Position numbers and translations under genes: made by a program. A stretch of 64,000 nucleotides of DNA from Anolis carolinensis (taxonomy: Eukaryota): the NCBI RefSeq assembly GCF_035594765.1, contig NW_026943818.1, positions 36,835,150-36,899,149 of the forward strand, written 5' to 3'. Positions 58,112-59,289 of the stretch are shown in pieces; positions within the stretch are counted from its first letter, which is position 1, and every line of letters starts with the position of its first letter. The notes below the pieces were generated by a model. The model saw only the letters and a list, made by a program, of their open reading frames with translations. It was not told the DNA's origin and made no database searches.

Positions 58112-59289
58112 TGTCAGAGACAGAACGCCACCAAATAAAGTTCAACACAGTTTATTAAAGTTACAGAACTAAAAATGCCCGTAAGAAACAAAGGACTAGG
58201 CAAACACTTGCCTTCAGTGTGAAAAGATACAAAAAAGACTCCGCTGGTACTAAAAGCGGTTCAAAAGATAAACCAGATTAAACAGGAGTTTAATCCGGGT
58301 TAAACCAAAAATGCTTACTTCAGCCTGGCAATTTAAACAAGCAAAAGTTGATAAACAAAGATTCAATGAAACATAAATAGCTGGCAGCAGATTCCTCTCT
58401 GCTACTCCAAAGCTACAAATGAGTAACTAAGGTTGTTACTCCTCCGTGCAACGAACGAAATCCGGATCCAGGCACATCAATCAGGGTTGCAACGATCAGC
58501 AGGGTCCCAATCCGGTCCGAGGTCGAAAGCCAGGTACAGACGTCTTTAGTTCACAAATTCCACCGATAGCCACAGAAGGGATAGTCCGAGGTCGTAGTCA
58601 GTCAGTCAGTCCAGCGTCATTCCAGAGTAGGCAATTAATGTCCGTCAAAAAGACGACGGAGGTCCAAGCTATCAAGATTAAACACAAGTTGCACAGGAAA
58701 AGCCCACACATTTCCTCCCGCCGTCTATGCCCAGTGTCCTTGGTAACTTACGTATTCAGCAAACGAATCACACCCGTCTTCAGGAAGTTCCCAACAAGAG
58801 CCCAAGCGTTCATCCAGATTACCTTGCCCAACGCAATTAGCCCTGGATTCTAAACCCCATTTTATGCCAGTTCACAACTCCTCATCGCTGTCAGCTGTTA
58901 CCCTAATTCCAGGTGCCTCATCATCATCCTCCTCATCAGAGCTAAAACACCTTTGACTACGCCCCACAGCATCCCCAGCTGTGGATCCCGTTCCATCCCT
59001 CCAACTCGTCCACGGGTCCGATCCTGCAACCCGCCAGTCGCCTCCCACACTATCATTGCCGGTGACACCCAAATCCTCCCTCACACGAGTCCATTCCATG
59101 TCATCCTCCTCAGAACTAACCATCTCTTCCTCCATTCCCTCGGTAAAACCCTCAAAGGAGTCTTCGTCTGTTGGTTCTGCAAATAAGTCCCGCAGCCGTT
59201 TCCTTTCGCGCTCCTCAAGAGAGTCTGACTCCCGAGGAGTCTTACGACCACGTCTCCCAGTATCGGAGCCATAAGGCTCAACCATAACA
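58112..59289 (-). mobile_element. Solo LTR (1178 bp, Gypsy/BEL-like) nested in a hAT MITE
   Basis: TG...CA termini, 5-bp TSD GGTTA (58107-58111, 59290-59294), CATAAAT TATA-like box ~58860-58866 and AATAAA 58151-58156, both on minus. Confidence 0.85.
58872..59285 (-). CDS. LTR(U3)-encoded 137-aa acidic protein with basic clusters and FxGF motif
   Basis: ATG 5 nt inside the LTR end, open to TGA just before the TATA-like box; expression not shown. Confidence 0.5.
   Translation of the reverse strand: MVEPYGSDTGRRGRKTPRESDSLEERERKRLRDLFAEPTDEDSFEGFTEGMEEEMVSSEEDDMEWTRVREDLGVTGNDSVGGDWRVAGSDPWTSWRDGTGSTAGDAVGRSQRCFSSDEEDDDEAPGIRVTADSDEEL

Follow-up and report, generated by a model that had tools for sequence, protein, structure and literature searches.

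Introduction

Short C-terminal integrase motifs dock on host chromatin factors in the yeast retrotransposons Ty5, whose targeting domain meets Sir4, and Ty1, whose integrase tail meets Pol III; both are Ty1/copia elements with partners other than LEDGF or HDGFL2. The present study concerns a 64,000-nucleotide stretch of the Anolis carolinensis genome (assembly GCF_035594765.1, contig NW_026943818.1, positions 36,835,150 to 36,899,149; hereafter the window). It contains a solo long terminal repeat (LTR) of a Ty3/gypsy retrotransposon, in which a 137-codon open reading frame (ORF) encodes a putative docking motif for LEDGF/PSIP1 or HDGFL2.

The LEDGF/HRP2 type of TFIIS N-terminal domain (TND)-interacting motif (TIM) has three parts: a helix, which is obligate and bears a hydrophobic residue (F/V/L/I) as anchor, an acidic linker of 8-16 residues that is often phosphorylated by CK2, and FxGF, which is present in and needed by all known LEDGF and HRP2 partners (PMC9987994). 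TIM helices are bound by many TNDs, FxGF being the part specific to two readers of methylated H3K36, and lentiviruses are the sole mobile elements listed as hijacking LEDGF/HRP2, without a TIM (PMC9987994). A literature search that did not reach Repbase, journals behind subscription or the supplements of preprints, any of which may describe the family or motif, found no description of a TIM in a retrotransposon integrase, and the terms squamate, Gypsy, LTR retrotransposon, integrase and LEDGF combined gave no match. Within the same limits, the statement of the first-pass annotation of the window that it knew of no such description in squamate LTR elements still stands.

Results

The LTR frame and its continuity with pol

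That annotation had described a solo LTR with TG..CA ends and a GGTTA target-site duplication (TSD), carrying an uninterrupted 137-codon ORF from near the LTR end to just before a TATA-like box. The 1178-bp bounds, both TSD copies, the translation and the position of CATAAAA bear this out, and the features are as follows.

58112..59289, minus strand: solo LTR, 1178 bp, TG (59289) to CA (58112); Ty3/gypsy, Tf1/sushi group, subfamily A; the same LTR bounds the full-length copies L031-L033 and L160
59290..59294, plus strand: GGTTA, the TSD copy adjoining the LTR 5' end
58107..58111, plus strand: GGTTA, the TSD copy adjoining the LTR 3' end
58872..59285, minus strand: 137-codon frame filling U3, equal to the last 137 Pol residues (integrase tail) of full-length elements (translation)
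59232..59255, minus strand: basic cluster RRGRKTPR (translation)
59181..59219, minus strand: predicted helix, tail residues 23-35, ending at anchor F35 (block means of the predicted local distance difference test, pLDDT, 77 and 67; other residues about 50)
59157..59180, minus strand: acidic linker AEPTDEDS, 8 residues, with a CK2-consensus site T39-x-x-D (translation)
59145..59156, minus strand: FxGF (FEGF), invariant as protein in subfamilies A, B and C despite codon differences
58860..58866, minus strand: TATA-like CATAAAA, starting at 58866, 6 nt past the stop codon of the frame
58824..58834, minus strand: self-primer site, 11 nt complementary to the primer-binding site (PBS) of full-length elements; presumed transcript 5' end (U3/R border)
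58151..58156, minus strand: poly(A) signal AATAAA by the LTR 3' end

The ATG of the frame is LTR nt 5 and its end LTR nt 418, and the 5-bp TSD reads TAACC on the LTR strand (GGTTA on plus). The translated product of 58872-59285 (minus strand) contains the basic clusters, the F-linker-FxGF stretch DLFAEPTDEDSFEGF (59189..59145) and the acidic Ser tracts previously pointed out; RRGRKTPR is a possible nuclear localization signal (NLS) or DNA contact. The copy in the window is most likely a product of LTR-LTR recombination, itself inert, with its frame not expressed.

The LTR is a member of a high-copy Anolis Ty3/gypsy (Tf1/sushi-group) family. A genome DNA search with it returned 2,487 candidates, the 40 scored being all 98-100% identical, and a protein search returned 10,769 (150 scored), totals that do not equal copy numbers. 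Recovery of full-length elements through the LTR, as had been advised, succeeded: they appear as hit pairs about 5.2 kb apart containing gag and protease, reverse transcriptase, RNase H and integrase (PR-RT-RH-IN). LTR pairs are 99.3-100% identical in all six elements examined, and the family is therefore young. The LTR end was parsable in 20 of 30 subfamily-A loci; 15 of these are solo LTRs flanked by a 5-bp TSD, two are 3' LTRs, one is a 5' LTR and two are unclear. Pol frames of 1212 aa (A, the subfamily of the window), 1219 aa (B) and 1214 aa (C) each terminate in the tail peptide; stops or frameshifts break some copies (L022, L031, L033, L117). In the gag/pol overlap, GGGAAAA precedes a stem of 12 bp (z -3.2; L031:3010-3070), which suggests a candidate -1 frameshift joining Gag to Pol.

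Pfam recognises PR, RT, RH, a zinc finger, rve and SH3_Tf2-1 in the family Pol. The layout, Gag and then PR-RT-RH-IN with an SH3/GPY-F module between LTRs, is that of Ty3/gypsy Tf1/sushi elements. The Pfam scan of this Pol gave no Chromo match, and the integrase C-terminal chromodomain that marks a chromovirus in the strict sense is absent from it; Pfam places a chromodomain at the position of the tail in a sister Anolis family (L161) and a Podarcis family (P0013).

In full-length pol, the SH3/GPY-F module is followed by about 30 linker residues, the polypurine tract (PPT, translated RGDSV) and the LTR frame, with no stop. Subfamily-C 3' LTR loci among L124-L153 have the frame open upstream as far as the locus edge in 24 of 24 cases. 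Because pol reads in frame across the PPT into it, in subfamilies A, B and C alike, the LTR frame is almost certainly the C-terminal tail of the integrase, placed where relatives have a chromodomain, which was one of two roles envisaged at the outset.

The other, a U3 accessory protein like nef or sag, made also or mainly from the ATG of the frame or from a spliced RNA, is very improbable, even with an ATG inside every LTR and a frame that stays open in all 30 subfamily-A copies selected by DNA. The ATG belongs to the LTR end TGTYATG and appears as GDSVM/GDGVM in chromodomain-bearing relatives too, and the frame is continuous with pol, not separate from it. The private variants that distinguish the 30 copies are neutral, 26 being non-synonymous and 11 synonymous (ratio 0.88, p 0.71); individual copies such as that of the window are therefore under no detectable selection. 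The PBS is of the self-priming type, the 11 nt after the 5' LTR complementing LTR nt 456-466 (start 455 in C, 461 in B). Four of six elements have the complement in perfect form; in the other two, whose PBS is altered, it shortens to 9 and 8 nt, and a compensatory change occurs in subfamily C. The primer of Tf1/sushi elements is the RNA 5' end (PMC4600332, PMC6317226), and here a distance of 30 nt separates the T of the TATA-like box (window 58864) from the self-primer site downstream of it (58834). With a start at this site the frame would lie wholly within U3 and be transcribed solely from the 3' LTR. A separate nef-like gene is unlikely because the presumed transcript start lies downstream of the stop codon. 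Contigs from four presumed-RNA runs covered 30 of 30 bins with no leader-tail joint; being blind to starts, strand and level, they count neither way.

A motif resembling host LEDGF/HRP2 ligands

In its sequence, the tail shows the features that define a TIM of the LEDGF/HRP2 type. AlphaFold2 with a 7-row alignment gave no fold (mean pLDDT 56), in keeping with disorder, and the sole better-scored stretch was the helix of residues 23-35 ending in L34-F35; helix and anchor are thus features of the prediction only. Searches with the tail yielded no Pfam match below E 0.1 (only PAS_9, E 0.13), one unrelated match in the Protein Data Bank (E 1.4) and no usable match in the ESM Atlas. The linker has 8 residues, 4 of them acidic, equal in length to that of Anolis CDCA7L, and contains the CK2 consensus T39-D-E-D, with S instead of T in subfamily C. 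FEGF follows in subfamilies A, B and C.

The host has counterparts of its own. Upstream of one CDCA7-family zinc finger in the Anolis genome lies an exon with KLADVFNAPSDDEDFFGF plus a second motif, and upstream of the other lies EMAEIFKEDSDDESFCGF; the motifs were located via the CDCA7 zinc finger, and the names CDCA7L (by position) and CDCA7 are presumptive. Ungapped, KLADVFNAPSDDEDFFGF matches subfamily C (RLRDIFAAPSDEESFEGF) at 11 of 18 residues, and A and B at 8 of 18. A recent capture of the motif from CDCA7L/CDCA7 was considered and rejected, there being no sign of it at the DNA level (identity 28-31 of 54 nt overall and 5-9 of 18 at third positions; no blastn match below E 0.33). The DNA pattern for P-S-D-x-E-E-F-x-G-F had no match in the Anolis genome.

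The prospective readers are also encoded in this genome, where exons for the integrase-binding domain (IBD) of PSIP1 and HDGFL2 are present (gene names from reading translations). The LEDGF IBD occurs in separate exons (L155-L157) and in a retrocopy, an intronless PSIP1/LEDGF-like sequence at L154:1474-2049 (G000:C2 near 143.718 Mb) with an in-frame stop inside the IBD. A metagenome scan for the IBD gave single exons only. An HDGFL2-like exon lies about 0.74 Mb from the window on the same contig.

Could the resemblance be fortuitous? The tail might be a constrained acidic/basic disordered extension, such as an NLS or a histone or nucleic-acid chaperone, whose F..FxGF is a look-alike that binds no TND. 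Short motifs easily arise and, as described below, purifying selection spans the whole tail. On the other hand, three of the four phenylalanines of the protein stand in TIM spacing, and F + acidic linker + FxGF arose in 89 of 200,000 composition shuffles (FxGF alone in 1,885 of 200,000), a figure that is a lower bound on chance, the pattern having been picked after the motif was seen. When the window was translated in six frames between stops (94,004 residues), this site alone passed the same test. More weight than the shuffle figure is carried by motif conservation and independent relatives; the identity of 8-11 of 18 with the host motif and the doubling of the pattern in distant integrases likewise count against a look-alike, which we consider improbable.

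Selection on the tail

Pairwise dN/dS counts were made with one natural copy per subfamily A, B and C, the three pairs being non-independent. The tail is under purifying selection between subfamilies, strongest on the motif. Its dN/dS values are 0.21, 0.23 and 0.29 (upper ends of the bootstrap confidence intervals 0.37, 0.37 and 0.46), and no replicate reaches 1. For the 18 motif codons from RLR to FxGF, dN/dS is 0.02 and 0.08 at dS 1.3-1.4, the third pair being saturated (6 non-synonymous, 14 synonymous), and for the integrase core it is 0.05 and 0.03, the third pair again saturated. At the motif the protein is conserved and the DNA is not. Comparison of motif and remaining tail gave Fisher p values of 0.027, 0.22 and 0.005. 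The whole tail is constrained, not the motif alone, and therefore the tail has further functions. A singleton ratio of 0.29 in subfamily B was set aside, those copies having been chosen by protein similarity.

ORF retention, dN/dS and motif-versus-flank constraint had been named beforehand as tests by which the proposal could fail, and none refuted it: the ORF is kept, dN/dS is well below 1, and the expected stronger conservation of the FxGF region than of its flanks held in two of three pairs and not in the one with p 0.22.

Motif-bearing relatives and the chromodomain cage

Among 148 representative hits to the integrase end, the GPY/F end was parsable in 132, with the motif in 2 (P0041, P0078). 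A follow-up search returned 6 proteins and added the motif-bearing Podarcis muralis integrases P0190-P0192. Two strict F..FxGF motifs occur in P0041, P0191 and P0192, and one strict motif plus one FxEF in P0190. All five relatives have a Pfam chromodomain before the motif that is without aromatic cage residues 1 and 3. In 161 stored GPY/F-end proteins, which include many redundant rows or chimeric gene models, the chromodomain was parsable in 74: 66 with full cage and no motif, 5 with broken cage and motif, and 3 with broken cage and no motif. The other 87, without a parsed chromodomain, have the motif in 6, all from the Anolis family of the window.

The Podarcis-type motifs seem to lie ahead of the LTR junction, judging from the protein only. 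Free trees (32 rows, then 20 rows without 12 short or chimeric ones) nest the Anolis family among chromodomain-bearing integrases and put the Anolis and Podarcis-type motif clades apart, among full-cage families; the approximately unbiased test did not reject a single clade (p 0.132). A search of Anolis with the tandem motif of Podarcis gave no counterpart (best E 2.4).

Several further observations concern these relatives. The P0191 motif ESFEGFSESE and the Anolis CDCA7 exon ESFCGFSESE (L175:8053-8283) agree in 9 of 10 residues, the likeness continuing past FxGF. A chromodomain-bearing Anolis family (L064-L093) has an integrase end that also reads into the 3' LTR; its tail contains DEEENLGF, a possible half-motif, and ends near RRSARI, where Podarcis P0013 has RRSARL. 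We take these two endings to resemble the nucleosome-binding core of HMGN, a possible second host-mimic motif. Another abundant Anolis gypsy family (L034-L063, L162) has a single 1596-aa frame stopping right after GPY/F and an LTR of about 300 bp and, having neither chromodomain nor tail, forms a natural control. The public Anolis gene models P0002, P0004, P0008 and P0009 splice or fuse the LTR frame to long interspersed element (LINE) or host frames and are probably annotation artefacts.

Proposed mechanism and insertion distribution

We favour, with a probability of about 0.6, the reading that this chromodomain-less family maintains an LTR-encoded integrase tail whose motif docks on the TND of LEDGF/PSIP1 or HDGFL2 and so tethers the integration complex. 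The 3' LTR would be the sole source of the tail, which would be translated within Gag-Pol; its motif would dock on the integrase-binding (TND) domain of either host protein, and docking would hold the complex at transcribed chromatin with methylated H3K36. Affinity may be tuned by CK2 acting on the linker, as for host TIMs, and the motif may have inherited the targeting role of the lost chromodomain. Taken separately, binding of the helix-acidic linker-FxGF motif to LEDGF/HDGFL2 is probable, and steering of integration by the tail has slightly better than even odds. A wider scenario, more tentative and with the odds leaning a little against it, is that squamate Ty3/gypsy elements swapped an H3K9me-reading chromodomain for a LEDGF/HDGFL2 docking motif, possibly twice, shifting targeting from heterochromatin to transcribed gene bodies and giving retrotransposons a path of their own to the cofactor that lentiviruses access through a different interface. 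The swap possibly took two routes, the Anolis chromodomain being deleted and the motif placed in U3, and the Podarcis cage decaying and the motif being doubled.

Several results weigh against tethering by the tail. Hits outside contigs C1-C6, which leave a genome share of at most about 15%, number 4 of 149 for subfamily A, 15 of 150 for B, 7 of 150 for the chromodomain family and 22 of 150 for the tail-less family (contig shares counted by hand, the length of C5 bounded from hit positions). At this contig level the small contigs, which are presumably gene-dense, show no enrichment, and the depletion of A is on a par with that of the chromodomain family; the count is a weak test, confounded by post-insertion selection, LTR pairs counted twice and solo versus internal hits. 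A large Anolis family thrives without chromodomain and without tail, and the pattern of cage loss and motif gain rests on one or two evolutionary events. The motif-versus-flank comparison is non-significant in one of three subfamily pairs, which are not independent, and the tail outside the motif is also constrained (dN/dS 0.27-0.43). The window copy itself lies about 9.6 kb upstream of the FEM1-like ankyrin frame in a gene-dense stretch, a single site that proves nothing.

The crude contig count also speaks for a reading in which the tail binds LEDGF/HDGFL2 or another TND protein (IWS1, TFIIS, ELOA, PNUTS) with no site preference, serving nuclear retention, integrase stability, chromatin access or protection from silencing. 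Many TNDs read TIM helices (PMC9987994), and the basic clusters next to the motif could serve nuclear import. Such binding is an unlikely but serious contender, since FxGF, the part specific to two H3K36me readers (PMC9987994), is invariant here and the motif occupies the position of targeting domains in related elements (PMC3059260).

Other features of the window

The neighbouring genes and repeats in the window, with gene names presumed from Pfam matches where given, are listed below.

13441..14028, minus strand: arrestin-domain exon (Pfam)
22668..29099, plus strand: perilipin exons (Pfam)
35440..37626, plus strand: TRIF/TICAM1 with an internal 13-residue repeat tract (Pfam)
46528..48552, minus strand: FEM1-like ankyrin protein (Pfam)
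51605..52586: at least 13 tandem copies of a 51-bp unit; L177 has arrays similar to this one
62432..63360 (minus strand), 30207..30998 (plus strand) and 2422..2952 (plus strand): fragments with a zinc finger and endonuclease-like C-terminal part, which we take to be the C-terminal region of a non-LTR retrotransposon

Discussion

The tail is a real, selected feature, and a variant of integrase-tail tethering with a specific predicted host partner. If true, tethering through it would mean that a vertebrate LTR retrotransposon integrase with a selected host-like TIM is a case of true motif mimicry of the LEDGF/HRP2 interface. It would also show how a single lineage exchanges its integrase targeting modules, three kinds of family (TIM-bearing, tail-less and with a chromodomain) sharing one genome. 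How targeting module and insertion landscape are connected is directly open to test, through the lizard annotation already available and a simple assay of peptide binding.

The host TIM or IBD-binding motif (IBM) proteins JPO2/CDCA7L, KMT2A, IWS1 and POGZ share helix-F, acidic linker and FxGF with the tail. POGZ is itself a domesticated DNA transposase. The spacing in the tail is identical to that in Anolis CDCA7L, and the Podarcis integrase motifs are in tandem as in JPO2. Whereas the host proteins are transcription regulators, the Anolis tail belongs to a multi-copy, recently mobile LTR element.

In lentiviral tethering of integrase by LEDGF/HRP2, the host domain and the gene-body outcome equal those predicted for the Anolis tail; HIV integrase, however, uses a pre-arranged folded site and not a disordered IBM/TIM, whereas the Anolis element would copy a cellular motif (PMC9987994; PMC10854676). 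The Tf1/sushi (V-clade) chromoviruses Sushi-ichi and Amn share with the Anolis family Gag, the PR-RT-RH-IN order, SH3/GPY-F, a self-priming PBS and a 5-bp TSD; unlike them, the Anolis family is without a chromodomain and has a 137-residue LTR-encoded TIM-like tail (PMC6317226, PMC4600332).

A conserved integrase C-terminal motif, of the type seen in the CR motif and in the ET-binding tail of murine leukaemia virus (MLV), is found in the Anolis tail. The MLV tail is likewise flexible, and it binds the BET ET domain and tethers integration; MLV is a gammaretrovirus, its reader recognises acetyl marks, its tail is not described as LTR-encoded in the text consulted and its binding is proven, whereas the Anolis partner is predicted from sequence (PMC8149907). 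In plant CRM group A chromoviruses, as in the Anolis family, the integrase frame extends into the 3' LTR and an LTR-encoded motif replaces the chromodomain, the CR motif being linked to site choice (PMC3059260). The two differ in that the CR motif is centromere-associated, with no partner named, whereas the Anolis motif matches a defined host short linear motif whose readers mark transcribed chromatin (PMC3059260).
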